DNA of 64,000 nt from positions 3,200,001 to 3,264,000 of the forward strand of contig OZ246001.1 in NCBI GenBank assembly GCA_965230295.1, given 5' to 3'. This stretch comes from Marinicella sp. (GTDB lineage: Bacteria > Pseudomonadota > Gammaproteobacteria > Xanthomonadales > Marinicellaceae). This document shows, piece after piece, positions 5,396 through 60,400 of this stretch. The notes under the pieces are model-generated. The model saw only the letters and a list, made by a program, of their open reading frames with translations. It ran no database searches and had not been told where the DNA came from. A program made the translations under genes and the position numbers. Positions within the stretch are counted from its first letter, which is position 1. Each line of letters starts with the position of its first letter.

Positions 5396-7225
5396 ATGAC
5401 CTTACCAAAAAAATTGTTATTTTTGTTCTTCATGGCTGCCTGTTTGCCAAATCTGTCTGAATCAGCAGAACACAACTTATTAAATCAGGGGCTGAAAGAG
5501 GTGCGCTTGAATGATGTGATTTACATGGCTCAAAACCAAGAAATCAAGAGGTATGATTTAAGCAGTTCAAGTTGGTTGTCAGCCGTCAGTTTGAATTCAG
5601 GACCCGATGCTTTTAATGTGAACCCCCATGGCATCTTTGTGGCTCATGGCAACGAATTGTATGAGTATTCAGCCAGCGGTGCGCCAAGAACTTTGGTTTA
5701 TACCAACACTGATCCAATATTGGAAGTGGTTTATTTAAGCGATCACTTGATATTTGCCACGGCTGATAATACCTATGCTTTTGACTTATTGAGCCAAACA
5801 TTGACCAGTGAAATTCCTTCTGGTGTCAAAGGTTTGGTTGCTGTGCCGGGCCGGCGACACGTTTTTGCCATAAAAGTTGACACCATTCCACGTGACATCG
5901 TGAAGACCAGCTTATCAGAAGCTGGGGTGTTGGACTATTTTCGTGACAGTAATTACCACGGAAACTACCCACAGGGAGAGCGGATGTATACCTTTCCTGA
6001 TGAAAGGCGGGTCGTTGATGCATCGGGTATTGTGTATTTTACTGTGGACATGACGTTTTCTGCTGATTTGCAAGGTTCATTCAGTCATTTGGATTTTTAT
6101 GGTGATCTACCTATCGTGTTGAGAAACGGTGAATTATCAGCCTATTCGAATACATTCGAAATCACGGGTTCTTATACACCACAAATTCAAAGTGACTTTT
6201 TTTATGTCTACAATGATGAAATTCATGCATTTTCTGATCAAGGCAATGACTTTCTGGTTGAAACTTTTGACATCAGTTTATTGACATCAGACATACCTTT
6301 TCAGGCGATTGATCCTACCGGGCTTCAATACGAACCATATCGATTGTCCTATGACAATCACCAAACTGTTTATCTATTGGACCGACCTAACTTGAGTATT
6401 TACCCGTATGATGTTGGCTCTGAGTCTTATCAAGACACCATTTCACTTGAGAACCCTCCTACAGAAATGGAGTATTCAGTAGAAAACAGCAAACTCTACT
6501 TAACGGTGGCCAATAATTCCATCCTTGAATACGACCCTGCATCAAAAGAAATGTCAGTTTTGATTGATGAAGACCCGTATTTAAACTTTGCAAACAACTA
6601 CCTACACAAACTTGAAATGGCAGGGGAGTACTTGTTGGTGCTTCATTATTTGCCAATTTCATTTCGTGGCTTCTCCTTATTTGATCATTCAGGCACATTG
6701 ATTGCGTCCCAAGACATTTTTGAATCTACTGATTACTTGTCATGGGATAGTGGCAAGCGCATCATGTACTTTTACCATAACAATGCCACAACAGGAGCCA
6801 TTCGTGGCATTGAGATCAACGAAGCAGGAGAGTTTGGTGACGAAATCATCAGAAACCAGAGCTTGTTTTTTGATCCTGTATTTTTGTGTACGAGCCCGGA
6901 TGGCGATTTGTTGGTTCAATCCCGTGGATATGTTCTGGAAACTGATGATTATGAAGTGGTTGAGTACTTACCGCATGCAATCACTGATTGCAGTTGGTCA
7001 AATGGCACTTTGTATACACTTGAAGATGCCGGAACGTTGCGGCTCCAGTCATGGAGTGAAAATTTCGAAGAAACACTGGTGACCGACTTGTTCGCTGCAC
7101 CGTTAGGCATGCAGGGTTTGACCAGTGGCGCCGTCTTCTTGATGTATAAGGAGTTTGATGGAGTTCCTCAATTCAGCATTGAAAACGATGTCATTTTCAA
7201 CAACCATTTTGAACAGGGAGAGTAA
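5396..7225 (+). CDS. Secreted beta-propeller-like hypothetical protein with C-terminal DVIFNNHFE tag
   Basis: 609-aa ORF with a signal peptide, repeated short beta-strand pattern and terminal tag. Confidence 0.8.
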   Translation: MTLPKKLLFLFFMAACLPNLSESAEHNLLNQGLKEVRLNDVIYMAQNQEIKRYDLSSSSWLSAVSLNSGPDAFNVNPHGIFVAHGNELYEYSASGAPRTLVYTNTDPILEVVYLSDHLIFATADNTYAFDLLSQTLTSEIPSGVKGLVAVPGRRHVFAIKVDTIPRDIVKTSLSEAGVLDYFRDSNYHGNYPQGERMYTFPDERRVVDASGIVYFTVDMTFSADLQGSFSHLDFYGDLPIVLRNGELSAYSNTFEITGSYTPQIQSDFFYVYNDEIHAFSDQGNDFLVETFDISLLTSDIPFQAIDPTGLQYEPYRLSYDNHQTVYLLDRPNLSIYPYDVGSESYQDTISLENPPTEMEYSVENSKLYLTVANNSILEYDPASKEMSVLIDEDPYLNFANNYLHKLEMAGEYLLVLHYLPISFRGFSLFDHSGTLIASQDIFESTDYLSWDSGKRIMYFYHNNATTGAIRGIEINEAGEFGDEIIRNQSLFFDPVFLCTSPDGDLLVQSRGYVLETDDYEVVEYLPHAITDCSWSNGTLYTLEDAGTLRLQSWSENFEETLVTDLFAAPLGMQGLTSGAVFLMYKEFDGVPQFSIENDVIFNNHFEQGE

Positions 7226-7229
7226 GTTC

Positions 7230-8513
7230 ATGAATACCCAAAGTTACAACAGTAGGTTACTCACCATGGCCCTGGCCATGCTCCTTTTTTCAGTTTCAGT
7301 TTGGAGTCAGAACACCTCTGACAACAGCTCTTTGAGACAGGATTTTGATGGGTTGGTTTTGCCGGATCATTCGTGGACAGGCATGCAGTTTGGTTGGGAT
7401 GTTGCCGCTGAAGACGATACATTAGTCGTGTCCAATTTCGGAACAGCCATCACGGCATCTGTCTATGTATTTAAACGCATCAATCACCAATGGCAACAAA
7501 CACAAAGAATCATCCAGCCCAGTAATTCAGAAGATTTTGCCATTACCTTCGATTTATTCAAAGATCGCATGATTGTCAGTGCCCCTGATTACAGATTCCA
7601 GGCTCATAAGAATCGTGGCAGTGCACCAGGAGCCGCATATATTTATGAGTTTGATGGGGCGATGTGGGAACAGACTGGTCTGGTTTTCGCTGAAGATGAA
7701 TCTAATTTCAACGAAGAATTTGGATACAGGGTGAAAATTTATGGGGATACCGCCATTGTTTCAGCTCCGGAAGATGACGACGGCATGTATGAAAGTTATG
7801 GAGCGGTCTATGTGTTCACCAAAGGTGTTGATGGATGGAGCCAGTCAAAAAAGATTATATTGCCCATCAGAAGGGTTGACGAGTTTTTTGGTGTTGAAAT
7901 TGATTTGGGGGTGACCAGTCCTGAGAAACTGAACGGTGATCGAATTGTGATTGGCACATTGAAATCTGAAGCGGTGTATATTTTCGAGTTGATCAATGAA
8001 GATTGGATCTTGGTAGATCAACTGTTTGCCAATGATTACGGGTCCCAAAGTGGCTGGGGTAGGTCGTTGTCAATTCAGGATGATCTGTTGGTGGTGGGTT
8101 CACCCCTCGAAGAAAAAGGCGTCGTTAATGTGTTCAAAAAAATGGATGATACATGGACCCATCAAGAAACATTTACTAACCTCATTGATGATGGCTCACT
8201 TTATTTTGGAAATCGTGTGACCTTACACAACAATAAGATACTGGTGTCTTATTTAATGGATCCAGGCAGCATCAACGACAATGGCCAAAATTTTCTTTAT
8301 CAATTTAATGGGATTGAATGGATTAGAACCCATGCATTCAACACTGAACTCAGTAACTTCAATTTTGGTCAAGCGTTGACTGATGATTGGGTGTTTTTGG
8401 GTACGCCAAAAACCAACCGACATCCCAATACAGTTACCGGAGTGGTGTATGCAATCAGCATTGACAACCTATTTTGTAGTGGTTTTGAAATCAGTCCTGA
8501 TGCGTGCAAGTAA
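7230..8513 (+). CDS. Secreted FG-GAP repeat protein with near-terminal DNLFCSGFE tag
   Basis: Repeats FGWDVA..LVVS, FGYRVKI..AIVSAP..GAVYVF, WGRSLS..LVVGSP. The start is moved to ATG 7230, just after the upstream stop, where a signal peptide follows. Confidence 0.85.
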   Translation: MNTQSYNSRLLTMALAMLLFSVSVWSQNTSDNSSLRQDFDGLVLPDHSWTGMQFGWDVAAEDDTLVVSNFGTAITASVYVFKRINHQWQQTQRIIQPSNSEDFAITFDLFKDRMIVSAPDYRFQAHKNRGSAPGAAYIYEFDGAMWEQTGLVFAEDESNFNEEFGYRVKIYGDTAIVSAPEDDDGMYESYGAVYVFTKGVDGWSQSKKIILPIRRVDEFFGVEIDLGVTSPEKLNGDRIVIGTLKSEAVYIFELINEDWILVDQLFANDYGSQSGWGRSLSIQDDLLVVGSPLEEKGVVNVFKKMDDTWTHQETFTNLIDDGSLYFGNRVTLHNNKILVSYLMDPGSINDNGQNFLYQFNGIEWIRTHAFNTELSNFNFGQALTDDWVFLGTPKTNRHPNTVTGVVYAISIDNLFCSGFEISPDACK

Positions 8514-8578
8514 TCAAGTCTGAGTCATTTGCTTACAATTGAATGCTTATTTCAATAGTGACATAGGTGATTAATTTT

Positions 8579-10888: not shown

Positions 10889-13800
10889 ATGTTTTATAGG
10901 TCAAAAGTTTTTATATTGATGATCGGTTTGCTTGGGTTGCCTTTGCATGCATTTTCAGGAACAGCAGGCAATGACCTCATTCATAAGAATGGTTTTGAAC
11001 TGTTTCCCTTGAACTTTTTCAAAAGTGAAGTGCAGCCTAAATTGGATGCCGAATGTTCCAGTTGTCACGTTGGAGAACGTTTTGGCATCACGACCTTACA
11101 AAAATCAGGAGCGGTTTTTACCGATGAAGACACGGCTGTTAATTACCAACGATTTAAGTTGATGCTGTCATTGGATGAGCCAGTACAAAGTCGCTTGTTG
11201 GCCAAAGTCATCCCCAGTACAGATCCCCGTGCCATACCGCATGCCGGTGGTGAATTGATAAGCCTTGGTAGCGACATGTATCAATCCATAGTGGCGTGGG
11301 CAAACCTGGAAAAAAGCGTGGATTGTGCCAATTGTGGCACCACGGCAGACAAGGCGTACATAGCCTATTTAGACCAGCCTGCCTGGCATTGGGGGGTGAA
11401 CAGGATGCCTGTCAGGACTGATTGGGGTTTGAGGTCCGGTGCAAGAATCATGCTGCAGCAAGTCAACCCATCTTCTTTACAGCCCATCGGTGCACCGATA
11501 GATTTTTTGAATGGTTCTTTTTGTGGTTCTGATGGCATGTGTGATTTTGGGCGATCGTCAGCCAACCATGCAGGTGATCAATTGGTTTTCGAGTGTCGGG
11601 TCAATCCCGGTCAAGATGACATTCCTTGGTTGGATTTGAGTTGGAATATTTGTCTTGCTGAAATTGGTGCAGATGGTCATGCGGTTAACCCCAGATTTTT
11701 ACGCCCGGAAAGTGATCGGCATGTGGGTTGGTCGGTGTCCAGGATTGATCCTTTGGGTTTGTTTGACAGTGATGGCAGGGGTGTCAGGGGGTTGTATGAT
11801 GATCATGTGAGGATGCGCAAAAAGAACGATTTTTACCCCATTTTTTCACCTGATGATCAGCGCATTTATTTCAGCAGTCGATCAGCCGATCCTCGTTCAA
11901 GCGTTGGTGGTACCCGTGCATACCATGGATTTGAGCACACCAACAACATCATCTCTACCAACCTGCAAGGTGGTGATGCCAAAAGCATCTATCTGAACGA
12001 AGGCGGGACTGCTTTGGAGATGGCTTTTCTTAAAAATGGCAATTTGGCCGTCCATGTCTGGAACTTAGAGCGCATGGACCGGCACAGTTACATCCAAATG
12101 ACTGCCGATGGCATGATGGAATTGCCTGTGTTGTTTGGCCGGGTTCAAGGCCGCAACATGTGGGGGGATATCATGCAGTTAGCCAATGGACGAACCATTG
12201 GCATGACTGGTAGGAGGCGGGGCTCCATCAGCAACTTCTTGCCATTTTCGGCAGATCACACCACCGGTACTGGATTGGATCCTGTCTTTCCGGGATTTGA
12301 AATTCTTGATCCAGCCATCGATGCAGAAATGGATGACAGCTTTGCCTATTGTAGCAATCCGCCAGAAGGGCAGAACTGCCACACTTCGCGATTCTATGAC
12401 GACCCTTCTTATGCCCCCAATGGCACCGCTCTGATCACATACCACCCGAATAAAACCTACTATTCTAATGACGATGCAGCCGATGGTTTTTGGCAAAACT
12501 ATGGCGGTTCCATCCAAGCCATCATGCCTTATGTACCGGAACTGACTGTGGCATCGATTGATCACGCTGGTAACACCCAAGTACTGTTAACACCGCCCAC
12601 TGGTCGGGCCTTCAGATACCCAAGCTGGGTAGGGCGCATCCATCCACCAGCCATTCAAGCTGTGGTTACCGACGAAGCTCAAGACACTGCTGAATTACAT
12701 ATCGCCGACTTTCCGCTGTGGTTGTCTTTTGCGGTGAATAACTCTCAAAATAAAACCCATTTAATCAACCAGTTGGATTCAATTGTTGCGGTGCGGGTAT
12801 TGAGAAAGTCCATCGATGCCAATGCCTGTACCAGTGATGCTGAAACCATCCGTAAAAATGTCTGGACAGCCGTCTATGACCACCCAACCCATTTAGGCAT
12901 CAACAACGCCACGGGCTATACACGCCTTAAGGTGCCACAAGCGTTGGGTGGTGATGTCAATGGTGACATTCCATTGAATAATGACAAGTCCATCAGGTTG
13001 ACAGTACCTGCGGGGCAACTGTTGTTGTTCCAAGGCATTGATGCAGAAGGGTTTTTGGTTGAACAACATGACCGGGTGTTTGCTTTACCACCGGGTCACC
13101 GCATAGATTCGTCGGTAAAAAGAAGCCAATACAATGCACAATGTTCGGCTTGTCATGGGGCATTCAATGCACCTTTTACCAGCATTTTGGATTATGACCA
13201 ATTGGCCACAGGGATGGATTTCAACACCCAGGCCATCACATCCATTGATGTTACAGATGCCGCCACAGTGGAGGAAAAACTGACTTTCAAGAGTTTGTTC
13301 AGGCCGATCATCAATGACCGTTGTGTCAGTTGTCATGATGCGGCTGATCCTGAAGGGGACTTAACCCTGGTTGAAACCTATTCATTGACTGCAAACTATC
13401 CCATGCCAGGCAGCCAATGGGCCTCATCTGTTAATCAGAATTATGACAGTTTGGTACCGGTGGCTGAACGGGTTTACGGTTTTGCCTGGTCTGCTGCCAG
13501 AAACTACATCATCACCGAAGGCAGTGATTACATCAATGAATTCATCAACCCCACTGATCCGTACCAACCCATGGGAAATCTGGCGCCTTGGGACCCGGGT
13601 TATCAGGCACTGTTTTTACCTGATGTGAACGATGAGCTCAATTACCTCACTGATTACCCTTATCAATCGCATTTTGGTCGGGGTGGTGATTTTGCCAGAA
13701 CCAGTTTCTTATTGGAGGTTTTAACCGGGCAGGATCTGGATCCCAGAAAAGATTATGCGGGCAGTCATGACCACACCGGCATATTGAGTGAGCAAGAAAT

Positions 13801-13927
13801 CATTTCCTTAAAGGCTTTGATTGATAATGGTTTTCCGTACATGTCTCAATGTGATGACAAAGTGGTGACTGAAGGGATCAATACCGGTTTACCATGGGGG
13901 GATCCTGTAGAACAAGATCATTTATGA
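10889..13927 (+). CDS. Secreted tri-heme c-type cytochrome with beta-propeller and hydrazine synthase alpha (HzsA) middle-domain-like region
   Basis: CSSCH (11054-11068), CSACH (13142-13156) and CVSCH (13322-13336). PIFSPDDQRIYFSS is a WD40/PD40-like repeat. VPAGQLLLFQGIDAEG..LPPG precedes the second heme motif. Signal peptide and GGAGG RBS present. Confidence 0.8.
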   Translation: MFYRSKVFILMIGLLGLPLHAFSGTAGNDLIHKNGFELFPLNFFKSEVQPKLDAECSSCHVGERFGITTLQKSGAVFTDEDTAVNYQRFKLMLSLDEPVQSRLLAKVIPSTDPRAIPHAGGELISLGSDMYQSIVAWANLEKSVDCANCGTTADKAYIAYLDQPAWHWGVNRMPVRTDWGLRSGARIMLQQVNPSSLQPIGAPIDFLNGSFCGSDGMCDFGRSSANHAGDQLVFECRVNPGQDDIPWLDLSWNICLAEIGADGHAVNPRFLRPESDRHVGWSVSRIDPLGLFDSDGRGVRGLYDDHVRMRKKNDFYPIFSPDDQRIYFSSRSADPRSSVGGTRAYHGFEHTNNIISTNLQGGDAKSIYLNEGGTALEMAFLKNGNLAVHVWNLERMDRHSYIQMTADGMMELPVLFGRVQGRNMWGDIMQLANGRTIGMTGRRRGSISNFLPFSADHTTGTGLDPVFPGFEILDPAIDAEMDDSFAYCSNPPEGQNCHTSRFYDDPSYAPNGTALITYHPNKTYYSNDDAADGFWQNYGGSIQAIMPYVPELTVASIDHAGNTQVLLTPPTGRAFRYPSWVGRIHPPAIQAVVTDEAQDTAELHIADFPLWLSFAVNNSQNKTHLINQLDSIVAVRVLRKSIDANACTSDAETIRKNVWTAVYDHPTHLGINNATGYTRLKVPQALGGDVNGDIPLNNDKSIRLTVPAGQLLLFQGIDAEGFLVEQHDRVFALPPGHRIDSSVKRSQYNAQCSACHGAFNAPFTSILDYDQLATGMDFNTQAITSIDVTDAATVEEKLTFKSLFRPIINDRCVSCHDAADPEGDLTLVETYSLTANYPMPGSQWASSVNQNYDSLVPVAERVYGFAWSAARNYIITEGSDYINEFINPTDPYQPMGNLAPWDPGYQALFLPDVNDELNYLTDYPYQSHFGRGGDFARTSFLLEVLTGQDLDPRKDYAGSHDHTGILSEQEIISLKALIDNGFPYMSQCDDKVVTEGINTGLPWGDPVEQDHL

Positions 13928-16545: not shown

Positions 16546-16550
16546 TGGTT

Positions 16551-19355: not shown

Positions 19356-20717
19356 TTATTCTTGCACACCCACCAGATTTACATTTGGCCCCATGTCTTG
19401 TCCATCATCACCGGCTAGGTGGCCTATTGAGCCTGGTAGCAGCTGATAATCTGTGATCTGATTCAATGCCGGGTTGGTGAATGTTGGGCTGCCACTGAGT
19501 GAATGGGCATCTTGCGAATGGTGAGTCTGCCATTGTGTTAAATCATAGGCTTGGTTGTTTTCAAAAATGTCGGCCACATAAAGGTTGTGATCCATGGTGC
19601 TTTCATGCGGTGTGGTATCCCATGGATGCAGATAAAATCGTGAGACAATGATGTTGTTGAATAAGCTGTTTTGATAGGCGCCTTGATCTGTGGCGCCATC
19701 TGAGCAACCGTCAAACCCCAAATCGTAGAAGTAATTATTGGTCAAGTGGTTGTAATCACCACCTTCACCCGTGGCTCCTGAACAATGGTTCAATGAGAAT
19801 GTGCCAGCTGATGCCGTGCTGATGTTGTTGTGAATGTGGGTGTATCGGGTGTTCAAACGAGCAGCTATGGAAACATCACGGATGTAGTTATTGGCAATCA
19901 CTGAACCTGTATTGCCGATCGATGGAAAATGATCGTGTTTATAATGTATACCGGTTCGGTGATTGGATATTTCGTTGTTCAATATCCTGACATGGCGATC
20001 ATGGGTGTAATAAATGCCGGCTGAATTCATTGATCCCAAGTTGGGCCCTGGGCCATCTATGCGGTTGTTTTGAACCACCGTATCCAGGCCAAACTGAAAT
20101 ACAGTCACACTGCCGGCATTGTCGTTGACAAAATGTGTGCCGGAAAACTGGTTGTTCTCAACCATGACCTTGATCACGTCTTCGGTGATGCGGTTTTCTC
20201 CCACATTAACGCCGATTTTACAGTCAAGAAACACCAGATTGCTGATGGTGATGTGGCTTTGGTCGATATAAAAACACTGGGCACCGGTGTCGCTGTTGAT
20301 GTCATACTGACCATCGATGGTGACTTGTTCACCCGGATAGGATCTGATGGTGATTCGATTCCAAGCATCAGGCTGTGGTGATTGAAAAGTATGTGACCGT
20401 CCGAATGCCATCACCATGTCATAATTACCATAAGCGCCTTCGGTGAACAAGAAAGTGTCGTTATAAACACCACCCATCAAATAGAGTATATCACCACCAC
20501 TTAACAGGTTTTGTGCCGTGCGTAAATCACATGGATCGGCATACTCACAACTGGCAGCCATTGATGCCCCGGGTGCCGCATAAAAACAATCATTTTTGGC
20601 AGCACAAACCACCGATTCAAAATCTGCCTTGTACACCATGTCACCGTAACTCACCAATGGATTGGTACTTGCACCAGCAGTCCAAAAAAGTAAACATAAA
20701 AGCACCCTTATCATCAT
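19356..20717 (-). CDS. Secreted right-handed parallel beta-helix protein with N-terminal DMVYKADFE tag
   Basis: CFYAAPG..GGDILYLMGGVY..ITIRSYPGEQVTIDG is a pectate-lyase-like cap, followed by Asn-ladder repeats (IxNN). The start is moved to ATG 20717, where a signal peptide begins. Confidence 0.85.
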   Translation of the reverse strand: MMIRVLLCLLFWTAGASTNPLVSYGDMVYKADFESVVCAAKNDCFYAAPGASMAASCEYADPCDLRTAQNLLSGGDILYLMGGVYNDTFLFTEGAYGNYDMVMAFGRSHTFQSPQPDAWNRITIRSYPGEQVTIDGQYDINSDTGAQCFYIDQSHITISNLVFLDCKIGVNVGENRITEDVIKVMVENNQFSGTHFVNDNAGSVTVFQFGLDTVVQNNRIDGPGPNLGSMNSAGIYYTHDRHVRILNNEISNHRTGIHYKHDHFPSIGNTGSVIANNYIRDVSIAARLNTRYTHIHNNISTASAGTFSLNHCSGATGEGGDYNHLTNNYFYDLGFDGCSDGATDQGAYQNSLFNNIIVSRFYLHPWDTTPHESTMDHNLYVADIFENNQAYDLTQWQTHHSQDAHSLSGSPTFTNPALNQITDYQLLPGSIGHLAGDDGQDMGPNVNLVGVQE

Positions 20718-20924
20718 ATCTGACTGAACTTCTAAAAAAGGATCAGTATCCAATAAGAGTGAACTGCTGTTTGTGACCCAAATCAAACTAAATAAAATAA
20801 GTTATCCGAAATCGTGCGCCTCGGTCGACAACAGGTGATAAAGCTGTGGCTTTAATTGGTGTTTTTTATCACTTTTAGAGTGAAGTGCCATTACAATGGT
20901 TTTTATTTTTTTTAAAAGAGATTT

Positions 20925-40566: not shown

Positions 40567-40999
40567 GTGATTAAGACTTCAAAATATCCATGATAAAAGT
40601 CTATCAAATCAGGGATAAAACTTGTGTAAAAACTGAACAGAGTTGGTTAAAAGCTTTTTTTTCAACAACTTATCAATGACGTAATAATGACATGATAGTT
40701 CGGTTTTTTTGGTAATGGGTAAAGTGTTGGCTGTCTAATTCATCCTGATTGGCAAATTATTCAGAATATTTCTTAGATTTCTGGGTGTAGAACCTTTTTT
40801 TATTCTAAACATGGTCAATGCAACATAAATTGATAAAAATGCCAATTGAGTTCAAACATTCACCACATCAGTCGTGGTATCATCTCTTGGCGAAAATTCT
40901 TACCCCCGAATTAACGCTTTTTACAAGTTTAAACAAGATGCCATTTTGTTCCCCTTATTTATCGTAATTGAATGGTATTTCATTAAGAGGAGAGATATT

Positions 41000-43900: not shown

Positions 43901-44011
43901 GTAGGTGCGGGAGACTGGGAAATCGATGACATTGAAATCACAGATTCTGGTTCTTTTGGTGTGTGTAATTTGCCACCGAGCGATCTTATTTTTGAAAACG
44001 GATTTGATTAA
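41000..44011 (+). CDS. Large secreted protein with FN3 domains, MAM/jelly-roll-like domain and DLIFENGFD tag
   Basis: TTG start at 41000 after a GAGGAG RBS, signal peptide, PSDTNGDVG..DYPK..RYGDY N-terminal domain, two YRS..YYYVVR FN3 units, and a WDGGVLE..WEIDDI domain. Confidence 0.88.
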   Translation: MKHKSKLRSSLLVLTCLLVCQAAMATTTRVGAEFVGETVTPVTVTVNLANGTKPNQWKPGDPVKEIPMRFRRPKGWERPEALPRGYGIDPLALKQWDATPSNGFGGGAQFDTPLVNVDGLDFTGVNPSDTNGDVGIDHYVQSINNSASSGILILNKADGTTAAQFVLDDIAAGSGTGCGGGRGDPVIMYDQYVDNGPGNPKGRWVLTEFTSTSLCIYISVTESPIGPTNDSTWHIYEFNSASGGLPDYPKFGVWRDAYYMGANESNRQYAFDRDNMINGDPARGYQVFSTVGLPGFGFQHLMPADADGETLPPAGAPGIFMRHRDAQYHGDPGSDVLEIWEFTTDFDNPGNSAITGPINIDVSDFDTNLGGTNFGDLSVPQPDGATNLFPLKQPLMWRVQHRTLDDKQYLIGNMTTDVNGNDYHGVRWWILERPAASTAGGWILSDEGTYTSGDGITTGDGVHRWMASAAMDGSGNVAIGYNTSSVAGNNNSAADVYAGMRYAGRLASDPAGTMPRGENSIIEGTASNSSGRYGDYTSLSVDPVDECTFWYTAQYNTSGNWSTRVASFRFEQCGCLLSIDPVTLTSVNADSDNNINVAWDDAPNAEITEYRIYRSTTPGAGYVLIDTVVDTSPGVANSGLYDYDDNSVSAGTTYYYVVRSSDGAACSSANSVELSATATGLCTLAPDFNGVVSASNNAAATCGITVDWTAGSSLCPAGSGDLTYSVYRSTDPGFVPSLANQIATGLDVLIYDDQDPGLVSDTDYYYVVRATDTDNSLEESNDEVVSAFPTGSITPQVFLEDLNAYADITDAQAAGWSTVADQGVNDWRIEIGDDNPNGPSNGSGSAFVSTDVATAADKSLITKSFSPSVTSVLSFYHKHDFEFDPTPWDGGVLEITFDGGNNWQDLGGQITQGGYNVTLNGSGGANPLGAVPAWGGLQATYTQVLVDLGPYAGQLVQVRWRMGTDAFVGAGDWEIDDIEITDSGSFGVCNLPPSDLIFENGFD

Positions 44012-44197: not shown

Positions 44198-46849
44198 ATG
44201 AATTCAGAACATTGGAAAAAGGCAATGAGTCATTATGATCAACTGATCAAAATGACTGAGACTGAAAGAGCAAAAGAACTGAGCGCCATTCAGGCAAGTG
44301 ACCCTCCATTGGCAGATGTCTTGATTAAAATGTTTGAGTCTGAAAAAAAACCTCAATTCTTACAGCATGCACCTGAGATTTCGATTGAAGAAATATGGAC
44401 GCAAAATATAAAACCAAACTTTGGTCGTTATAACATCATTGAAAAAGTGGCATTGGGTGGCATGGGAAGAATTTATAAGGCCCAATTAGAGGAAAGTGAT
44501 GTCATTATTCACGTGGCCTTAAAAATGATTCGCAGTGAGCTGTTAAGCGATTCAATGTTCAATCGGTTTCAAGCTGAAAAGAATATATTGTCCGGATTGG
44601 ATCATCCGAATATAGCTGCATTGGTTGATGCCGGTGTGGTAGGTGACATACCGTACTTGGCAACAGCATGGTTTGATGGTCAGCCTTTGAACCGTTATAT
44701 CAAGGATCGGGGCCTTGCGATCAATGAAAAACTGAAGTTATTTTTTCAAGTGTGTGAAGCAGTGATTTATGCCCATGGTCGCTTGGTTATTCATCGGGAC
44801 TTGAAACCAGGAAATATACTTGTTAATGAAGAAGGTACAGTAAAACTTTTGGATTTTGGCATTGCCAAGATGTTGAATGAAAGTCAACATGATGCCACCC
44901 ACACCCATGTTTTCACTCCGGACTATGCAGCACCAGAGCAAATCAACGGCCAGCCGTGTACCACTGCCACTGATGTTTACGCTTTAGGTGTGTTGTTGAA
45001 AGAACTGCTGACCGAAAGCAATCGATTTGAATTCGAAGACATTTCAATTGCATCAAAAATCGAACAAATTTTATCCAATGAAGTGATATTGGCCAGCCAG
45101 TTGGCCAAATCCAATGGCAATCTGGTGATGGCTCAGAAATTGACAGGCCCATTGGATAAGATCATTGCTAAGGCCATGCATGTTGACATAGATCGTCGCT
45201 ACCAATCGGTTGCTGAAATGATGGATGATTTGATCAGGTATAAAAAACATTTACCCATCAAGGCCATGGGCGATGGTTGGTTTTATCGGACTCGCATGTT
45301 TTGGAAGCGGAATGCATGGTCTGGCGCATTTTCGATGCTTTTCGTCATGTCTCTGTTGGTCGGAATGACGGTGAGCTTGAAGCAAAGAAATGAAGCGGTC
45401 ATGGCACAACAAGCAACCTTGATTGAAGCGGAGAAAAACCAACAAATCGTCAACTTTTTCAGAACGATGTTCAATCAAGCGGCTCCATTAGAGGGTGGTC
45501 TTGCTAACATCAGTGTGCAAGAAATGCTCCAAAAAGGTTATGAGGACTTTGACTTTAACCTCATTGATAATCCGGAAACCAAAGCCTATGTTGCTTCACA
45601 AATGGGCTTGCTGTTTGCTGAATTCAGCGATTTTGAAAAACAGCATCATTTGTATGATCTGGCAGCTACAGCTGTGGCCGCTGATTTAGATAATTATGGC
45701 AGTATTTATCTACACCATGCAAATTTTGCAGCCAGTGCTTTGAATGACATGGAACAGCCGCAAGCTGCGATTGAATATATTGAAAAAGCATTGGAATTAT
45801 TAGCCGATATTGAAATAGACTCCAGTAAACGAGCCGAATCAAAACTACATATCGGGAGTTTTTACATGGCATTGGGTCAAGAAGAATCGGCCTTGCAAGA
45901 ATTCATGTCTGTGGAATCGTTTTCTAAGCAACATGATCTGGATGAACAATTGGCCAAAAGTTTTTACTATCAGCACATCTTACAACAGGATAAATTAAGT
46001 CCCGCTGAATCCCTGGAGTTGCTGGAGCAAGCCAGGGCACTGATGATCCAACAACCCAAAGAAAACATAAATATGTTGTTTAGCATCAACAACTCTTTGG
46101 CGTTGCGTTATAAAGATCAGGGCAAATTTCGTTCATGCATCGACTTGTTGAGTGAAGTGGACCATGAATACCGCAATATATATGGCGTTTCGAGTGAAGA
46201 TCATTTGATCAATTTAGCTGATGCACATTTTTATGTAGGTGATTTTGAGCAAGTGGTTGATTTAACAACAAGAGCCATTGCTATCATGCAAGACAAACAA
46301 ATCAATACAGGGTTTGTCTATATGGCGGCCTTGATCATTCAAGCCAGGAGCTTAACGGAATTAAGACAATTCATTGCAGCGGAAGCCAATTATCAGGCTG
46401 CATTACAATTTTTTAATGAAAAATTTCCCAAAGACCACATAGCCGTGGTCACCCTGAATGGGTATTGGATTGATTTTATCGTGAAATCCAATCGAGGTGA
46501 CATGCCTGATCAGCAAGCCTTGAGTCAGATCAACACTTCGGCAGAACAACAACTCAATGCATCAGATCGATCAAAACACAGGTATGTGAATGCGAAGGTT
46601 ATTGCTGCAACGGCTCTTTGGCATTCAGGGCATTTAGCAGCAGCAGAGGAGATGCTGATGCAAGCTTTTGACCAGCATCCCATGCCTGAATCATCAGAAG
46701 ATTGGCGGGTGTCATTGATGATTGCTGGAATTGAACAACTTCGTAAGGACCTGGGAAAGCCTTATGATGATCAAATTAAAAAACTTCATGAACAACAATT
46801 ATTTGCCCAAATTGGTCAGGATCACTGGTATCATGACTTTTTCAAATGA
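44198..46849 (+). CDS. Membrane Ser/Thr protein kinase with periplasmic TPR-like domain
   Basis: GGMGRIY, VALK, HRDLKPGN, DFG, YAAPEQ and DVYALG, followed by a TM helix and helical repeats. Confidence 0.95.
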   Translation: MNSEHWKKAMSHYDQLIKMTETERAKELSAIQASDPPLADVLIKMFESEKKPQFLQHAPEISIEEIWTQNIKPNFGRYNIIEKVALGGMGRIYKAQLEESDVIIHVALKMIRSELLSDSMFNRFQAEKNILSGLDHPNIAALVDAGVVGDIPYLATAWFDGQPLNRYIKDRGLAINEKLKLFFQVCEAVIYAHGRLVIHRDLKPGNILVNEEGTVKLLDFGIAKMLNESQHDATHTHVFTPDYAAPEQINGQPCTTATDVYALGVLLKELLTESNRFEFEDISIASKIEQILSNEVILASQLAKSNGNLVMAQKLTGPLDKIIAKAMHVDIDRRYQSVAEMMDDLIRYKKHLPIKAMGDGWFYRTRMFWKRNAWSGAFSMLFVMSLLVGMTVSLKQRNEAVMAQQATLIEAEKNQQIVNFFRTMFNQAAPLEGGLANISVQEMLQKGYEDFDFNLIDNPETKAYVASQMGLLFAEFSDFEKQHHLYDLAATAVAADLDNYGSIYLHHANFAASALNDMEQPQAAIEYIEKALELLADIEIDSSKRAESKLHIGSFYMALGQEESALQEFMSVESFSKQHDLDEQLAKSFYYQHILQQDKLSPAESLELLEQARALMIQQPKENINMLFSINNSLALRYKDQGKFRSCIDLLSEVDHEYRNIYGVSSEDHLINLADAHFYVGDFEQVVDLTTRAIAIMQDKQINTGFVYMAALIIQARSLTELRQFIAAEANYQAALQFFNEKFPKDHIAVVTLNGYWIDFIVKSNRGDMPDQQALSQINTSAEQQLNASDRSKHRYVNAKVIAATALWHSGHLAAAEEMLMQAFDQHPMPESSEDWRVSLMIAGIEQLRKDLGKPYDDQIKKLHEQQLFAQIGQDHWYHDFFK

Positions 46850-46863
46850 CTCGATGTTAAATC

Positions 46864-47427
46864 TTGCTTGAAATCAATCAAATCACTCAGTTTTTAAACC
46901 AAAATGACCTTGATGATTCTGCATGGGAGCAAGTGTTGCCTATTGTTTACAAACAACTCAAACATTTGGCCAGAAAAATTAAGGCAGATCACAAAGCCAG
47001 TCCGACATTGAACACAACAGCCCTGGTGCATGATGTTTATTTGAAAATTAAAAAAAGTGGTTCACTGAATATTCAAGGGCGTAAACATTTTTATCGATTA
47101 GCGGCTAAGGCCATGCGCCAAATATTAATTGATGCCGCCAGAGCCAAGCAAACTGGCAAAAGAGCAGGGCATGTTGTTGAATGGGAAGATGATTTAGCCA
47201 TCAGTATCCATGATCATCCCAATTGCTCCAACGATGACTTACTGGTTATTGATCAAGCCCTGATTCAATTGAACTCAATTGACCCTAAAATGGTTGAGCT
47301 TATTGAGTTGCATTTTTTTGCCGGGTATGGATTTGCACAAGTGGCTGAGATCATGGAAACCTCGGAAAGCACCGTTTTTCGGATGTGGAAAAAAGCAAGG
47401 GCGCTTTTGTACGCACATATCTATTAA
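46864..47427 (+). CDS. ECF sigma factor of the Ser/Thr-kinase-associated type (TIGR02999-like)
   Basis: VYKQLKHLA, TLNTTALVH, AMRQILIDAAR and ELHFFAG..WKKARA. Confidence 0.92.
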   Translation: MLEINQITQFLNQNDLDDSAWEQVLPIVYKQLKHLARKIKADHKASPTLNTTALVHDVYLKIKKSGSLNIQGRKHFYRLAAKAMRQILIDAARAKQTGKRAGHVVEWEDDLAISIHDHPNCSNDDLLVIDQALIQLNSIDPKMVELIELHFFAGYGFAQVAEIMETSESTVFRMWKKARALLYAHIY

Positions 47428-47518: not shown

Positions 47519-48277
47519 ATGAAAAAAATGATCACAGGTTTGTTGTTGCTTGCCTCATTGAATGTATGGGCCAAACCAGGACAATATCAAATCAATCAGG
47601 CTTGTCTATCTGTAGGTTGTTTCGCTGGTGACAACCCGGCAACCGACACCGTTGAAATCACCCAATCTGCAGGTACATTCATTTTAACCAGCAACCTCAC
47701 TGTTGATTCCAATGGAGCGCCTGCTATTTTGGTAGATAACAGTTTAGGTGCTTCTTCAGTGGTTATTGATTTGAATGGCTTTCGTATCCACCACAGTGGA
47801 ATTGCTGACACGAATACACATGGGATACAGGTTTTAGGCCAAAACAGCATGGTGACCATAAAAAATGGTCAAATTTCTGCCTTTCAAGATGGTGTTCAAG
47901 CACTTGAAGGGGCCGGGTTGTTGGTGCAAAACATGACATTTCGAATCAACAGAGATGATGGCATCTCATTAACCCGCGGTCGCATTGAAAACAGTGTGTT
48001 TCATGCCAATGAATATGGCGTATTTGCTGTTACAGGTCCTGGTGGAGCCGGTTTAGAAGAATTGAGCAAAAAGGTGATGCTTGTTGCTAATTTGTTCTCA
48101 GATGTCACAGTTGATCAAAGGAGTACTGCAGGTTTCTCCAGTGACGGTTATTGTAAAGACAATGTAGTCACTATTCAGGACCCCAATCAGTTTGGTCAAT
48201 GTACTTTGGTAGGAGAAAATCGCTGTGATGGTGCATTATGTAGCGTCAACAGAAGCCACTTTAAAACCGAGGAATGA
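47519..48277 (+). CDS. Secreted beta-helix-like protein
   Basis: AGGAG RBS, then MKKMITGLLLLASLNVWA. INQACLSVGCFAGD..FILTSNL..VVIDLNGF..VTIKNG. Confidence 0.85.
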   Translation: MKKMITGLLLLASLNVWAKPGQYQINQACLSVGCFAGDNPATDTVEITQSAGTFILTSNLTVDSNGAPAILVDNSLGASSVVIDLNGFRIHHSGIADTNTHGIQVLGQNSMVTIKNGQISAFQDGVQALEGAGLLVQNMTFRINRDDGISLTRGRIENSVFHANEYGVFAVTGPGGAGLEELSKKVMLVANLFSDVTVDQRSTAGFSSDGYCKDNVVTIQDPNQFGQCTLVGENRCDGALCSVNRSHFKTEE

Positions 48278-49467
48278 CCATGAAGTATCTTATCTTTAGC
48301 TGGTTATTGCTGTGGTCAATAACAGCGCAGGCCACCCCTGAATTGATCTACATGGTTCCTAACGAAACGGTTGAAATATCTGGTGCAGTCGTTAAACCTA
48401 ATCAGGCATTAAAAATAGTCAACATCGACAATGTAACGGGTCGATCTGTCAGGAGTTTTGAGGAGTTTGATATGTTTCCATTGCCTGATGGTGTGAAAAT
48501 TATAGGTTTGAGCCGTGTCAAGGACCCAAGCCGTTGGAGCTTTGTACTGTCATCGGCATTGTCACATCCTGGTGGTTCACCTCCTGCTTCTCGAGCAGGA
48601 GATGTGTTGTTGTGTGCCAGTTTTGAGTTTTGCTTACCCATGTTCAGCGCCCAGGATAATTTGGGATTAAACGCCAACATACAAGTAGATGCCATTGAAT
48701 GGGAATTGGGTCTTGATGGAGAAAATGACTTGTTGGTCTCTTTCAACATGGACTTTGAATACGATGGTGTTGTGTATGACCACAACAACACATATCGGAT
48801 TGATTACCCTCAGAATGGTGATCCCATATCAGGGTTTGTAGATTCCTCTGGTTATGACTTCAACATACAAAATAACATGAACATGACAGCATACAGTTCG
48901 TATGATGCTGATGACCGTTTTTTGTTCTATGTTTCTGATACTGTTTTTTCCAGAGAAACAGGAGCAGTGATCTTTCCTTCAGAATTTTTTGAATTTTCAT
49001 CGTCCTCAGTCACCAATTCTTTTATCAACGAATTCAAGTTGGCAGCACGCGGGATTTCGGCGATGACCATGGCTGATACAGGCTGGGTTCAGTGGAATGA
49101 TTCAGGATCGGTTTATGAGGTCTATGAAAATGAAGGGTCTATAGCCATTCCCATCAGCCGGATAAACGGTGCGGAGTATAACACATCTTTTGTCATCACT
49201 GCCGTAGATGGCAGTGCTGTCAGTGGCATAGATTTTCAACTGAATGACACCTTGAAAAATTGGGCCAATGGAGAAAGTGGAGAAAAATTCGTTACCTTGG
49301 ACGTGTTAAATAACCAAGTTCAGGATGGTACTCGGGAGCTTGAACTGGTTGTCAGTGCCAATACAGGCTATGAATTTTCCCTGGTTGCTTTGAACCAAAC
49401 CAATCGAGTGACAGTGATGATCAGAGATGATGACAGTGACTTGATTTTTTACGATGGATTTCAGTGA
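48274..49467 (+). CDS. Secreted protein with Calx-beta domain and DLIFYDGFQ tag
   Basis: VYENEG..DGSAVSGIDF..WANGE..VMIRDDD Calx-beta pattern. ATGA overlap with the upstream gene. Confidence 0.85.
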   Translation: MTMKYLIFSWLLLWSITAQATPELIYMVPNETVEISGAVVKPNQALKIVNIDNVTGRSVRSFEEFDMFPLPDGVKIIGLSRVKDPSRWSFVLSSALSHPGGSPPASRAGDVLLCASFEFCLPMFSAQDNLGLNANIQVDAIEWELGLDGENDLLVSFNMDFEYDGVVYDHNNTYRIDYPQNGDPISGFVDSSGYDFNIQNNMNMTAYSSYDADDRFLFYVSDTVFSRETGAVIFPSEFFEFSSSSVTNSFINEFKLAARGISAMTMADTGWVQWNDSGSVYEVYENEGSIAIPISRINGAEYNTSFVITAVDGSAVSGIDFQLNDTLKNWANGESGEKFVTLDVLNNQVQDGTRELELVVSANTGYEFSLVALNQTNRVTVMIRDDDSDLIFYDGFQ

Positions 49468-49476: not shown

Positions 49477-50166
49477 ATGAACATGAAAACTATAAGCTTA
49501 ATGCTGTTGTGCTTTATGGTTTTGACGGATATCAGCCGTGCTGAAATGCTGGCTGATTATAACTTCAATAACAACTTATCAGGTGGCATGATTGCTGCTC
49601 CTGACTTGAACTTGACATCAGGCAGTACAGCATTTGCCACAGAAAACCCATTTGGGTTCCAAAAGCAAGTCTTGTTGTTTGATGAGTCGCAAGGACTGGC
49701 TTTGGACCTAAGCCAATGGTCATTAGACGATGTGTTCAGTCTGGTGATGTATTTGCGAATTGAGGATGTGAACAGTTACCGGAAAATCATAGATTTCAAT
49801 GAAAGGGCAGGAGATTCCGGTTTGTATGTTAACAGTGGTGCCATCGAACTTGTGCAACCCAATGCTGCGGCAGCCCCCAGTGTGTCAAATAACCAATACT
49901 TTCAACTTGTGGTGACACGTGATGACAGTGACCAGTTGAAAATATATCAAGACGGGGTACTGTTATTAGACATCAATGAATTTCAGTTAACAACTGATCT
50001 TGCTAACACGCCAGTTTTGTATTTTGTGATTGATGATTTATCCACCAATACAGAAAACCCTTCAGGTGCTTTGGCAAGATTGACTGTTTACAATGAAACA
50101 CTGAATCAGTTTCAGGTTGACGGGTTGGGTATTGTGGATGTGATTTTTATTGACGATTTTCAATAA
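49477..50166 (+). CDS. Secreted LamG/ConA-like jelly-roll protein with DVIFIDDFQ tag
   Basis: YNFNNNL, YFQLVVTRD..KIYQDG and LTVYNETL. GAGGAG RBS. Confidence 0.85.
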   Translation: MNMKTISLMLLCFMVLTDISRAEMLADYNFNNNLSGGMIAAPDLNLTSGSTAFATENPFGFQKQVLLFDESQGLALDLSQWSLDDVFSLVMYLRIEDVNSYRKIIDFNERAGDSGLYVNSGAIELVQPNAAAAPSVSNNQYFQLVVTRDDSDQLKIYQDGVLLLDINEFQLTTDLANTPVLYFVIDDLSTNTENPSGALARLTVYNETLNQFQVDGLGIVDVIFIDDFQ

Positions 50167-57990: not shown

Positions 57991-58232
57991 AATTGGCTCC
58001 ATAATGTTGATCCGAACACACGTACGGACTGTTGCTATTAAATATTCTACGGTGATTATTTTTAGGGTGAAGTGAAATGAGGTGAATGGAATTATCTATG
58101 CGACCAAAGGTGCTTTAATCCAGGCAATTGGTTCAGACTAACCCCTTCATAAGTATTTGATTACGCAACTGACCAATACAAAATTTTGACGTGGCCTGTG
58201 ATAACTTATCAATTTTTGAATATTCTAGGCTC

Positions 58233-58742: not shown

Positions 58743-58904
58743 GGCTTGATATTGAGTTTCCAAGTCTGAAAATCCAAGCTAAGTTTACAGCTAAGTATGT
58801 GGGGTTAATAAAGAACTGAACTGATAGTTATTAAGTTCAGTGGCACAATTCAAAAGAAAAAAGAAAGGTAAAGAGTTTAATGATTTCGAGTGAATTCGAT
58901 TGAT

Positions 58905-58940
58905 AAAAAAACGCCTGCTGAAGAAAATTAACAGCAGGCG
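58905..58940 (-). terminator. Rho-independent terminator
   Basis: CGCCTGCTG-N11-CAGCAGGCG flanked by A7, giving a U-tract on the minus strand. Confidence 0.8.
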
Positions 58941-58963
58941 CAACGAGGTGATTCAATGATATA

Positions 58964-60400
58964 TCAATCGAAGTTACTTCTGAAGATCCGATCTCCCTTC
59001 CAGCCATATACGGTGGGTGACTGTGCACCACAACCCGTGGCTGCTGAGCAGCTTGATACACTGTACCACCAAATGTCCCAAATGGGGCCAGGTGCAAAAT
59101 GTGTGTAACTGTTACCCACAACATTGATGTTGAATGGTAATCCGACTGAAGGGATGATCAATACGTTGTATGATGTTGCACCTGCCACTGAACTCCAATT
59201 GACGACGATGCGATCATCGAATGTGCCCAGAGAGGCACTCACTGAATTGGGTGGAGCCAATGCGGTGTTGGCAGCCCAGCCTGTGTCCATGGCGCTGTGA
59301 TTGCCGCAACCCCATTGGTTACAAGCCCTGACAGAATACTCATAAGTGACACCAGGAATGGCGACTGTATCATCTGTAGTCGTACCTTGTACAAATGAAT
59401 TCCATAAGGTCCAGGTTGATTGACCTGGATCCCTGCGGTACAAAGCATAAGAAGTGGTGTTAGAAACCGTGGTCCATGTCACTCTGACACGATCGGTAAA
59501 GGTCCCGTCACTGGCAGCCACATTGGTTGGGGTTGTTGGTGGATTTCCGGTGGCAACCCACGTTTCATCAATGGTGAATGCACGCAAGGCTCCTGGAGAA
59601 CTGGTGGTGTTAAAATCAGATGCCGGGAACTGGATGTTTACATTACTCAGTGAGTTCAAGTCCAATACTCGGATACTGCTGTCACTGGCGGCATAATACA
59701 TGTAATGTTGCCCAGCTGGCCATTTGACAATTTCAAAATAGCGGTATTGACCGGGGTTGCTACCAACTTGTTGACTGAATGGGATTTCAACACCCGTGTA
59801 GTTCATGCTTGATTGGACGGGATTGAATTGTTTGAAGGAGCCATCGGCAGCGGCATACCACAAGAAGCCATTGTCATCGACTGCCAACTGTCTTAAGTTA
59901 CCAGGATTGGGTTCACTGTTGCCCCATCTGGTGAATGGAATGGTGTACATATAAGTGTTGTTAACCAAGTTATAGACTTTCACATCGCCTTGAGAAGTGG
60001 ATATGTACAAACGTCTGCTGTTTTCATCAATGGCCAAGGTTCTGATGGCGCCATAAAAACCATCGTTGATGTCATTGATGATGGGCCCAGCGCCACCTGA
60101 TGCCCAATCAATTGAGTGTACATGGTTGTCAGAGGCTGCATACCACATCAAGCCTTCTACACGATCAAATGCGATGTTGCGTCCGGTTGCAGGAGTGGGT
60201 GGGGTACCAAAAAAAGCAAACGGTCCCAATTGAGGGCCTGTGTATGGACCTACCGTCATGTTTTTGCCCATCAAGCTGCCATCTTCAAGAGAATAGAAAA
60301 TCACACCCAATGCATGGGTTTGACTTGTGAACAAAGCGAAAAATAAAAACACCCCAAAGGTGGTTACTGAAAATCTGTTTGTTTTTGCTGTATTTGTCAT
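58964..60400 (-). CDS. Secreted beta-propeller plus two FN3 domains, with DRIFRSNFD tag
   Basis: Repeated WY/YY-AASD/AAAD blades, ASDGTFTDRVRVTW and ASLGTFDDRIVVNW FN3 units. AGGA RBS before ATG 60400. Confidence 0.87.
   Translation of the reverse strand: MTNTAKTNRFSVTTFGVFLFFALFTSQTHALGVIFYSLEDGSLMGKNMTVGPYTGPQLGPFAFFGTPPTPATGRNIAFDRVEGLMWYAASDNHVHSIDWASGGAGPIINDINDGFYGAIRTLAIDENSRRLYISTSQGDVKVYNLVNNTYMYTIPFTRWGNSEPNPGNLRQLAVDDNGFLWYAAADGSFKQFNPVQSSMNYTGVEIPFSQQVGSNPGQYRYFEIVKWPAGQHYMYYAASDSSIRVLDLNSLSNVNIQFPASDFNTTSSPGALRAFTIDETWVATGNPPTTPTNVAASDGTFTDRVRVTWTTVSNTTSYALYRRDPGQSTWTLWNSFVQGTTTDDTVAIPGVTYEYSVRACNQWGCGNHSAMDTGWAANTALAPPNSVSASLGTFDDRIVVNWSSVAGATSYNVLIIPSVGLPFNINVVGNSYTHFAPGPIWDIWWYSVSSCSAATGCGAQSPTVYGWKGDRIFRSNFD

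Follow-up and report, generated by a model that had tools for sequence, protein, structure and literature searches.

A nine-residue tag on unrelated exported proteins of Marinicella and its relatives that looks like an undescribed address label for extracellular sorting or docking

The choice by Gram-negative bacteria of which folded periplasmic proteins are released and which are retained at the surface is largely unsolved outside the type IX secretion system (T9SS) and the membrane-anchored sorting signals. The question is raised anew by a stretch of DNA from Marinicella sp., a genus placed by the NCBI taxonomy in the Marinicellaceae, order Lysobacterales. This stretch of 64,000 nucleotides, here called the window, comprises bases 3200001-3264000 of a single-contig genome of 4,008,074 bases with 44% G+C (labelled G000), and seven of its proteins, all with a visible signal peptide, end in or near variants of one nine-residue motif. 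An earlier note on the window had proposed the motif as a portable tag. Here, the abundance, position and distribution of this tag are described, the known sorting signals are compared with it, and the possible reasons for its existence are weighed. The tag looks like an undescribed address label for extracellular sorting or docking.

The seven motifs of the window all translate as the earlier note had listed them, and in five of the seven proteins the stop codon follows immediately. On the forward strand these are DLIFENGFD (43982-44008) in the open reading frame (ORF) 40874-44011, which encodes a MAM-like C-terminal domain, DLIFYDGFQ (49438-49464) in the Calx-beta protein 48274-49467, and DVIFIDDFQ (50137-50163) in the Laminin_G_3 protein 49477-50166; on the reverse strand they are DTIFTNGFD (23281-23307) in the M10-like metalloprotease 23278-25377, which has a PPC domain, and DRIFRSNFD (58967-58993) in ORF 58964-60421, which has a weak fn3 match. 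The two remaining motifs are near-terminal and on the forward strand: DVIFNNHFE (7187-7213) is followed by a stop three residues later in ORF 5396-7225, a protein of 609 residues with a signal peptide and no Pfam family, and DNLFCSGFE (8463-8489) by a stop seven residues later in the FG-GAP_2 repeat protein 7227-8513.

The tag and its carriers

The whole genome was scanned as 3425 ORFs, which are our own longest-ORF calls of at least 80 residues with overlaps removed and not curated genes, and which cover 91% of the 4.008 Mb genome. The regular expression [ILVM][FY]xx[GDNH]F[EDQ] gave 144 matches, 63 of them exactly C-terminal, 38 at 1-7 residues before the end, 8 at 8-30 residues and 35 deeper. 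Within 7 residues of the C-terminus there are accordingly 101 of the 144 matches, as against 0.7 expected from 20 residue shuffles of each protein, a C-terminal excess of about 140-fold. The shuffled proteins contained 34.7 matches in total (mean of the 20 shuffles), which agrees with the 35 real matches that lie upstream of the last 30 residues, so that the whole excess is at the C-terminus. The terminal enrichment supposed by the earlier note is hence found across the genome, although the tag is mostly and not strictly C-terminal, since internal copies exist.

A ten-column position matrix was built from the 101 terminal copies. Their consensus, with counts out of 101, is D (79), L (37) or V (21), I (88), F (96), A (34), K (16) or E (12), D (54), N (22) or S (15), G (67), D (25) or N (8), F (101), and E (60), D (35) or Q (6), where the Phe at position 8 and the final E, D or Q were preset by the regular expression that gathered the copies. 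The motif can be written D-[LV]-I-F-x-[DNS]-[GD]-F-[ED], and its conserved part spans 9-10 residues. At a threshold of 12 bits the matrix finds 140 ORFs with a copy no more than 10 residues from the end, together with 22 internal and 6 N-proximal matches, and the tag marks about 4% of the proteome. The conservation is at the protein level and not at the DNA level, in agreement with the claim that the DNA differs between copies: in the 75 copies that have no residue after them the codons vary at the third position (the last Phe is encoded by TTT in 61 and by TTC in 14), all three stop codons occur, and the 40 bases 3' of the stop carry no more than 0.19 bit of information per position.

Two copies near the N-terminus had also been claimed in the window, and both are present, with different standing. 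DLIHKNGFE (10973-10999, forward strand), which stands right after the signal peptide of a 1012-residue protein with heme-motif and PD40 matches (ORF 10889-13927), has a matrix score of 20.8 and is convincing as a genuine motif, whereas DMVYKADFE (20616-20642, reverse strand), in the NosD-like beta-helix protein 19356-20786, is a weak look-alike with a score of 12.3 whose membership among the tags is doubtful.

The carriers of the tag are unrelated to one another. After removal of the tag the 140 carriers fall into 76 single-linkage clusters, 59 of which are singletons; the largest are formed by 24 FG-GAP proteins, paralogs partly arranged in tandem, and by 12 proteins with a MAM-like C-terminal domain. 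In 71 of the carriers Pfam recognized 58 families, including FG-GAP variants (up to 10 members), DUF285 (7), Laminin_G_3 (3), S8 subtilase, DUF1501, Kelch, LRR, PA, reprolysin-like, GEVED, CotH, M14 and M64, to which the window carriers add the M10-like protease with its PPC domain, Calx-beta and fn3. Peptidases are well represented, with S8 subtilases and M10-, M14-, M36- and M64-type enzymes.

The tag is restricted to exported proteins, directed by Sec or Tat signals and mostly of extracellular type. A crude hydrophobicity rule applied to the longest-ORF starts, which asks for a signal-peptide-like N-terminus and no later membrane helix, was passed by 86% of the 140 carriers as against 31% of the 3285 other ORFs, and the 20 carriers that fail it are mostly borderline; one carrier is a DUF1501 protein with a Tat signal. 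The carriers are longer than the other ORFs (median 498 residues vs. 278; the longest has 3682), and a lipobox is rare among them (4 of 140, compared with 98 of 1512 other signal-peptide-like ORFs). The portable tag on unrelated exported proteins and its association with signal peptides, both put forward from the window alone, are thereby borne out for the genome.

Some further proteins of G000 are described here as observations in their own right. In three large proteins (L015-L017; genome positions 3172793-3178705, 1502239-1506363 and 1421560-1424421) the tag is followed by a common C-terminal domain of about 88 residues that ends DGDGxxNxxDxxPF and is thrombospondin-type-3-like; a weak TSP_3 hint is all that Pfam gave for this domain, of which the G000 genome has no free-standing copy. 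In the window, positions 1950-5225 of the reverse strand encode an untagged signal-peptide protein of 1091 residues, which we take to resemble the sortilin/VPS10-BNR repeat proteins. Such proteins are common in marine bacteria.

One exposed copy at changing positions

At a threshold of 16 bits the matrix finds exactly one copy in 132 ORFs and two copies, in tandem, in a single ORF. In three protein families this one copy has changed place, being found at the C-terminus, in a surface loop or in a linker. The first is that of the window protein 40874-44011, which is identical to its paralog at genome positions 1827755-1830751 in 840 of 1062 alignment columns. The window protein ends ...GVCNLPPSDLIFENGFD and has no internal insertion, while the paralog ends ...GVCTPAP and bears its tag within a 17-residue internal insertion, VIVDPDLIYANGFDGET, which by our reading of the sequence appears to lie early in a fibronectin-type-III-like domain. 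The second family is the PA-domain peptidase, whose orthologs in five genomes (G000, G003, G010, G039 and G031) end with ...DIGW followed by the C-terminal tag. The ortholog of G024 stops after DIGWSINEP with no C-terminal copy and has a 13-residue insertion, VVLADVIFADGFD, in the loop after the PA domain.

The third family is a subtilase of S8-PA-fn3_6 architecture. Among its 120 best homologs 92 bear the motif, 88 of them exactly once, as against 7.8 expected (50 shuffles); the named sources are Tahibacter and Dokdonella fugitiva, along with metagenome-assembled genomes (MAGs) of Rhodanobacteraceae, Xanthomonadales and Lysobacterales. The motif is found after the last strand (...RLSVAIRGT..IFANGFE-end) in 20 proteins and just before the last strand (...LFKNGFEDP..ARMTLTVQGTL-end) in 21, and in the longer forms it is located near residue 517 or at residues 700-780. 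Several subtilases that were scored as motif-less show degenerate copies.

That a single exposed copy is kept by selection wherever it is placed argues for recognition in trans. Moreover, since the copy may also stand behind the signal peptide or within a loop or linker, readers that depend on a free C-terminus, whether PDZ-type or sortase-type, are unlikely.

The exposure of the copy was examined in structural models. For a 529-residue FG-GAP carrier, modeled by AlphaFold2 from 20 aligned sequences that are mostly tagged, the propeller is confident (mean predicted local distance difference test score, pLDDT, 89.0; predicted template modeling score, pTM, 0.89), the tag residues 523-529 have pLDDT below 50, and no secondary structure is assigned beyond residue 516. 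A 261-residue piece with the internal copy was modeled poorly overall (mean pLDDT 59.1), and its insertion, at piece positions 106-122, forms a low-confidence gap between two better-modeled beta domains. In these models the tag is predicted to be unstructured, exposed and not packed onto its carrier. The 12 residues before the tag, taken from one representative per cluster, are not linker-like, Cys being 1.9-fold enriched and Lys depleted, which indicates that the tag usually begins a few residues after the last strand. The extensions that follow a tag are often proline-rich (TPAP, TPPP, APVAAP).

Distribution and comparison with known signals

Relatives of the window proteins were found with the tag in place. 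The ortholog of the metalloprotease 23278-25377 in Marinicella meishanensis retains it as DVIFTSGFD, and a metagenomic homolog of the Laminin_G_3 protein 49477-50166, with 38% identity, ends ...DIIFADVFEAELP; one window protein has its closest named relatives in M. meishanensis (67% identity along its entire length) and in a Marinicella MAG. The metalloprotease also has more distant homologs, one in a Planctomycetaceae MAG (L002; 57% identity, apparently split over two frames, without the PPC domain and the tag) and one in a Cloacimonadota MAG (L004; 32% identity, running on into a very long repeat region), which may reflect inter-phylum transfer.

Among whole genomes the tag was traced with a degenerate DNA pattern for D-x-I-F-x-x-[GDE]-F-[DE], for which a rough calculation gives about 0.1 chance matches per genome; the pattern requires D at position 1 and accepts no residue other than Ile at position 3, and thereby undercounts, Leu and Val variants being common in high-G+C families. 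It gave 65 matches in G000, 21-95 in 23 genomes of the same genus, 132 in a second genus of the family (G024), and 26 and 45 in two genomes of another family, and it was absent from 5 of 41 relatives. A control with the reversed pattern gave 0-1 matches per genome, as against 21-132 real ones in the family. Every sampled genome of the family is tagged (14 to 132 matches). In an order-level sample of 121 genomes, each at least 90% complete, a match was present in all genomes of five families (f1, 14/14; f3, 7/7; f9, 10/10; f11, 14/14; f5, 2/2), in 13/14 of f4, and in 7/14 of f7, 5/14 of f12, 4/14 of f8, 2/15 of f2 and 0/2 of f6. Family f12 is very patchy, with 0 to 105 matches per genome and with both 25 and 0 within one genus. 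Among 300 genomes from the rest of the class Gammaproteobacteria, a tally that includes the unpublished G154 with 1 match, none had more than 3 matches, which is near the control's 0-2.

Roughly half of the pattern matches directly precede a stop codon (40/65 in G000 and 57/132 in G024), and this holds in the few-copy families also. In five genomes of other families all 15 sites chosen by the pattern plus a stop end a long ORF, and all 9 of these ORFs with complete N-termini look exported. The ten carriers from other families that were scanned include S8 subtilases, a PA-domain peptidase, FG-GAP proteins, VesB-like Ig domains and a Tat-signal DUF1501 protein. Because G000 has tagged counterparts of the PA-domain and DUF1501 proteins, the tag is old and has been maintained. 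It is abundant across the family, patchy across the order (Lysobacterales/Xanthomonadales) and at chance level elsewhere in the class. The earlier note had spoken of similar tails in related taxa, and the tag is conserved across an order.

No known signal was found to cover the tag. Pfam and NCBIfam scans of the window carriers gave no model over the tail, and a literature search found no description of the motif, which agrees with the view that it matches no characterized signal. Against solved structures, a profile of the seven window tags matched two chains with E >1, in an N-terminal stretch of ArtA; these matches were rejected as chance.

The tag occupies the place that surface-sorting signals hold in other lineages, as indicated by two sets of comparisons. 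Among 80 FG-GAP_2 homologs of the window protein 5 are tagged, counting the query's own record, and homologs in other phyla bear other signals: 14 have the T9SS tail Por_Secre_tail (taken from a precomputed Pfam column), and one has MYXO-CTERM in the name given by its source. Inspection by eye adds two PEP-CTERM-like tails and some dockerin-like ends, and many of the homologs have nothing. Likewise, the region before the tag in 40874-44011 matches models that are named for myxosortase-dependent and rhombosortase-dependent M36 peptidases.

The tripartite signals, i.e., LPXTG/sortase, PEP-CTERM/exosortase, GlyGly-CTERM/rhombosortase, MYXO-CTERM/myxosortase and IPTL-CTERM, resemble the tag as short, lineage-restricted signatures on many unrelated signal-peptide proteins. 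These signals consist of a motif, a transmembrane helix and a basic cluster at the C-terminus, whereas no hydrophobic stretch follows the tag. The absence of a helix and a basic tail, and a length far below that of the T9SS domain, set the tag apart from LPXTG, PEP-CTERM, GlyGly-CTERM and T9SS in the way the earlier note had maintained. Its occurrence at internal and N-terminal positions, furthermore, makes it unusable by a membrane-embedded protease or transpeptidase. As to sorting enzymes, no recurring candidate was found in the neighborhoods of carriers, and no search aimed at sortase, exosortase, rhombosortase or myxosortase was made.

Other kinds of tail were noticed in these genomes. About seven G000 tails, among them those of the proteins at genome positions 2778439-2783760, 3946541-3948502, 820214-821107 and 982792-983415, were judged by eye to be IPTL-CTERM-like, with a PVPVP-type motif, a hydrophobic helix and a basic end; they are never combined with the tag and look like a second, classical sorting signal in G000. 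The untagged PA-domain peptidases of two genomes of family f3 (L045 in G026 and L047 in G037) share a different, proline-rich tail with Cys (...PP..DC....PLP-end), which may be another lineage-specific tail.

The T9SS C-terminal domain (Por_Secre_tail, PF18962), like the tag, marks a large and diverse set of Sec-exported proteins, both surface-bound and secreted; it is, however, a folded domain of 70-100 residues and the tag has 9. Neither PF18962 nor TIGR04183 was found in the Pfam and NCBIfam scans of the nine window proteins or among the 25 most frequent families of the 71 carriers, and the T9SS is not known in Gammaproteobacteria. The dockerin-cohesin system of cellulosomes, in which one docking module per enzyme is carried by many unrelated catalytic proteins, is the preferred working model for the tag. 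A dockerin, in contrast to the tag with its 9 residues only, comprises about 70 residues, binds calcium through a duplicated loop-helix segment and has a known cohesin partner; the Pfam scan of the window carriers gave no match to a dockerin model. Bacteroidota send lipoproteins to the cell surface by means of a lipoprotein export signal (LES), an acidic motif that is very short and whose machinery is poorly defined. The LES stands right after the lipidated cysteine, whereas the tag is mostly C-terminal, accompanies a lipobox in only the 4 carriers mentioned above, and is aromatic as well as acidic.

Substrates of type II secretion are folded periplasmic proteins, from which an exposed element could be read at any position, and the tag carriers include typical type II cargo. 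No linear signal shared by type II substrates is known. Two further export signals differ from the tag. The outer-membrane beta-signal of BamA substrates is the terminal aromatic residue, usually Phe, of a beta-barrel, whereas the tag ends in E, D or Q (60/35/6, as the regular expression required), which is the last residue of the protein in 63 copies, and is borne by soluble multi-domain proteins. The type I secretion signal lies within the last 50-60 residues of proteins that have no N-terminal signal peptide, whereas 86% of the carriers are signal-peptide-like. IssA, a subtilase of Dyella, is secreted by a type II system (10.1101/2024.05.07.592856); nothing on the tag is concluded from it here.

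Possible readers of the tag

The explanation that we tentatively prefer, and to which we give a little less than an even chance, is that the tag is an exposed address peptide, read in trans after export, by which carriers are docked at the cell surface. It would be a self-contained, solvent-exposed peptide outside the fold of the carrier, hanging off the last domain or set in a loop or linker. The carrier would fold and then cross the outer membrane, probably via the type II secretion system that these genomes encode, after which the peptide would dock it non-covalently to a cell-surface receptor, either a protein or a lipopolysaccharide or glycan. Adhesin-like repeat proteins and hydrolases would in this manner be held on the cell rather than diffusing off. 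The distribution of the tag fits an accessory module. In the f12 genome with 25 matches, none of four tagged proteins found a homolog in three tag-free f12 genomes, one of them of the same genus, while two of the four have many homologs in two tag-rich genomes searched. When orthologs with a lost tag were sought in a tag-free sister species, the cargo families themselves were not found there. Cargo and tag therefore appear to be gained and lost together, which fits an accessory receptor better than a core secretion machine.

The search for a reader covered the secretion genes. The type II secretion operon of G000 is complete (xpsE-F-G-H-I-J-K-L-M-N-D) and lies at genome positions 857482-867919, or 857073-867919 with a small overlapping lipoprotein gene; the gene names were assigned by order, size and prepilin motifs, and Pfam confirmed only the secretin. 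A second pseudopilin cluster is present as well. Secretin orthologs with E of 1e-90 or lower are present in 39 of the 41 relatives, 4 of the 5 tag-free ones among them. In family f12 a secretin ortholog is present in 5 of 5 genomes searched, irrespective of tag count. In G034, G036, G344 and G361 the secretin ortholog matches as two consecutive pieces in one long open frame, which suggests an inserted or highly divergent middle region and not a broken gene.

The search also covered the genes around the carriers. Just upstream of two tagged genes, window positions 44198-47427 encode a Ser/Thr-kinase-like protein of about 880 residues and an ECF-type sigma factor, both named by eye. The kinase family has 23 members in G000 and the sigma family 10, and with neighbor counts of 10 and 6 they are the commonest specific untagged neighbors of tagged genes; the kinase again stands beside tagged genes in 3 of 20 neighborhoods from other families. 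These pairs may be a dedicated regulatory layer for the tagged secretome. DUF1800 adjoins the tagged DUF1501 in G000, and a 95-member family also recurs among the untagged neighbors.

Two protein families met near tagged genes are described separately. All three genes of a DUF4915 paralog family (two members scanned; L007 and L008; genome positions 570623-572896, 988615-990657 and 3021874-3022914) adjoin tagged genes, one of them being a fusion with TPR repeats and a glycosyltransferase-9 piece; this family could be linked to one carrier paralog family and not to the tag itself. A family of 11 exported G000 proteins of about 470-490 residues has one member that adjoins the type II secretion operon directly downstream and one that is itself tagged, with three neighbor counts beside tagged genes. 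L009 (473 residues, genome positions 855496-856917) gave no Pfam match, and the protein atlas clusters offered only an unnamed 'cell surface protein'.

Several results weigh against docking at the surface. The earlier note had placed an export or display apparatus elsewhere in the genome, and no receptor or machine was found by the searches of type II genes and carrier neighborhoods. The specific recurring untagged neighbors in G000 are only the ECF sigma factor/Ser-Thr kinase pairs, DUF1800 and DUF4915, and in 20 few-tag neighborhoods of about 20 kb (G027, G028, G038, G347, G372 and G415) no untagged family occurs in more than 3 loci. No correlation was seen between the tag and the type II genes (secretin and second pseudopilin set): secretin orthologs are found in the tag-free G029, G030, G036, G040, G392, G344 and G361, and the GspK-like gene of the second pseudopilin cluster in 39/41 relatives, including the tag-free G029, G030 and G040. 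The PA-domain peptidase orthologs of G032, G026 and G037 are without the tag. The low AlphaFold2 confidence is what would be expected of any short terminal peptide and excludes only a strongly co-evolving packed strand. A surface location of the tagged proteins is suggested by the nature of the carriers and by analogy with the systems compared above, and the evidence does not separate docking from export.

Docking is preferred over an export signal, and the other explanations rank lower. An export signal would be a linear, position-independent mark by which folded carriers in the periplasm are recognized by the type II system, with an adaptor as a possible intermediary, or by another outer-membrane translocon. 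All carriers reach the periplasm first, one exposed copy at any position would be readable by a machine that exports folded substrates, and the carriers include classic type II cargo (the S8 subtilases and the M10-, M14-, M36- and M64-type peptidases). All 36 motif-bearing relatives have a secretin match, and G000 has the full xpsE-to-xpsD operon. In Dickeya PelI, an exposed loop of about nine residues reportedly contacts GspC and GspD of the type II system. However, the secretin, its XpsN partner and the second pseudopilin set are conserved in tag-free genomes with no matching gain or loss, and the system therefore works without the tag. Few-tag families have only a handful of carriers where many type II substrates are expected, while about 140 substrates would make an unusually large type II secretome. 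An export signal is on this evidence unlikely, while still deserving serious attention.

Roles in cis or in turnover, for which the tag would be a cap for folding or stability, a site cut by a maturation protease, or a label for the degradation of carriers stuck in the periplasm, are quite improbable. The usual location behind the final domain's last strand, without an intervening low-complexity linker, would suit such a role, as would the internal copies at domain borders, where processing is common. The conserved [DN]-G pair of the tag is a typical tight-turn former, which may be counted on the same side. Nevertheless, the carriers belong to 76 unrelated clusters and 58 Pfam families, so that there is no common fold for the tag to cap, and the copy shifts among terminus, loop and linker within one family. 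Cleavage at a C-terminal copy would remove 0-7 residues, whereas cleavage at a loop copy would cut a domain, and the AlphaFold2 models leave the tag unpacked on its carrier.

A modification sequon, i.e., a site of glycosylation, hydroxylation or cross-linking on exported proteins, has very little probability. Like bacterial glycosylation sequons the tag is short, exposed and restricted to exported proteins, and its position 6 is D, N or S in 91/101 copies. There is, however, no invariant modifiable residue, the invariant positions being hydrophobic (I in 88/101 and F in 96/101 at positions 3 and 4, with F8 fixed by the regular expression); sequons usually occur several times per protein, whereas the tag occurs once; and no modifying enzyme recurs beside the carriers among the G000 neighbors or in the 20 neighborhoods elsewhere. 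An artefact of chance, of composition, of one expanded paralog family or of a translated DNA repeat is already refuted, for although the largest cluster consists of the 24 partly tandem FG-GAP paralogs, the C-terminal excess over shuffles is about 140-fold, 59 carriers are singletons, the copies use different codons and are followed by no conserved DNA beyond the stop, and the reversed pattern gave 0-1 matches where the real one gave 21-132 per family genome.

A more far-reaching form of docking or export can be considered, which we regard as possible and rather unlikely. The tag may be a sufficient and transplantable sorting code of a Gram-negative envelope, such that any folded periplasmic protein with these nine residues somewhere on its surface would be delivered to the cell surface. 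The tag would act either as the first linear signal of a type II-linked or other outer-membrane pathway or as the ligand in a natural tag-and-receptor display of some 140 different proteins.

The features of the tag are sharply defined: it has nine residues, marks about 4% of the proteome, occurs once per protein and has repeatedly been relocated between exposed sites. It is also present in cultured genera, including named Marinicella species, Tahibacter and Dokdonella, and is for that reason directly testable. Should the tag prove to be no more than a quirk of structure, the annotation of hundreds of exported proteins of the order that are now 'hypothetical' would still gain from it; if it is sufficient for sorting, it would provide a very small surface-display tag.

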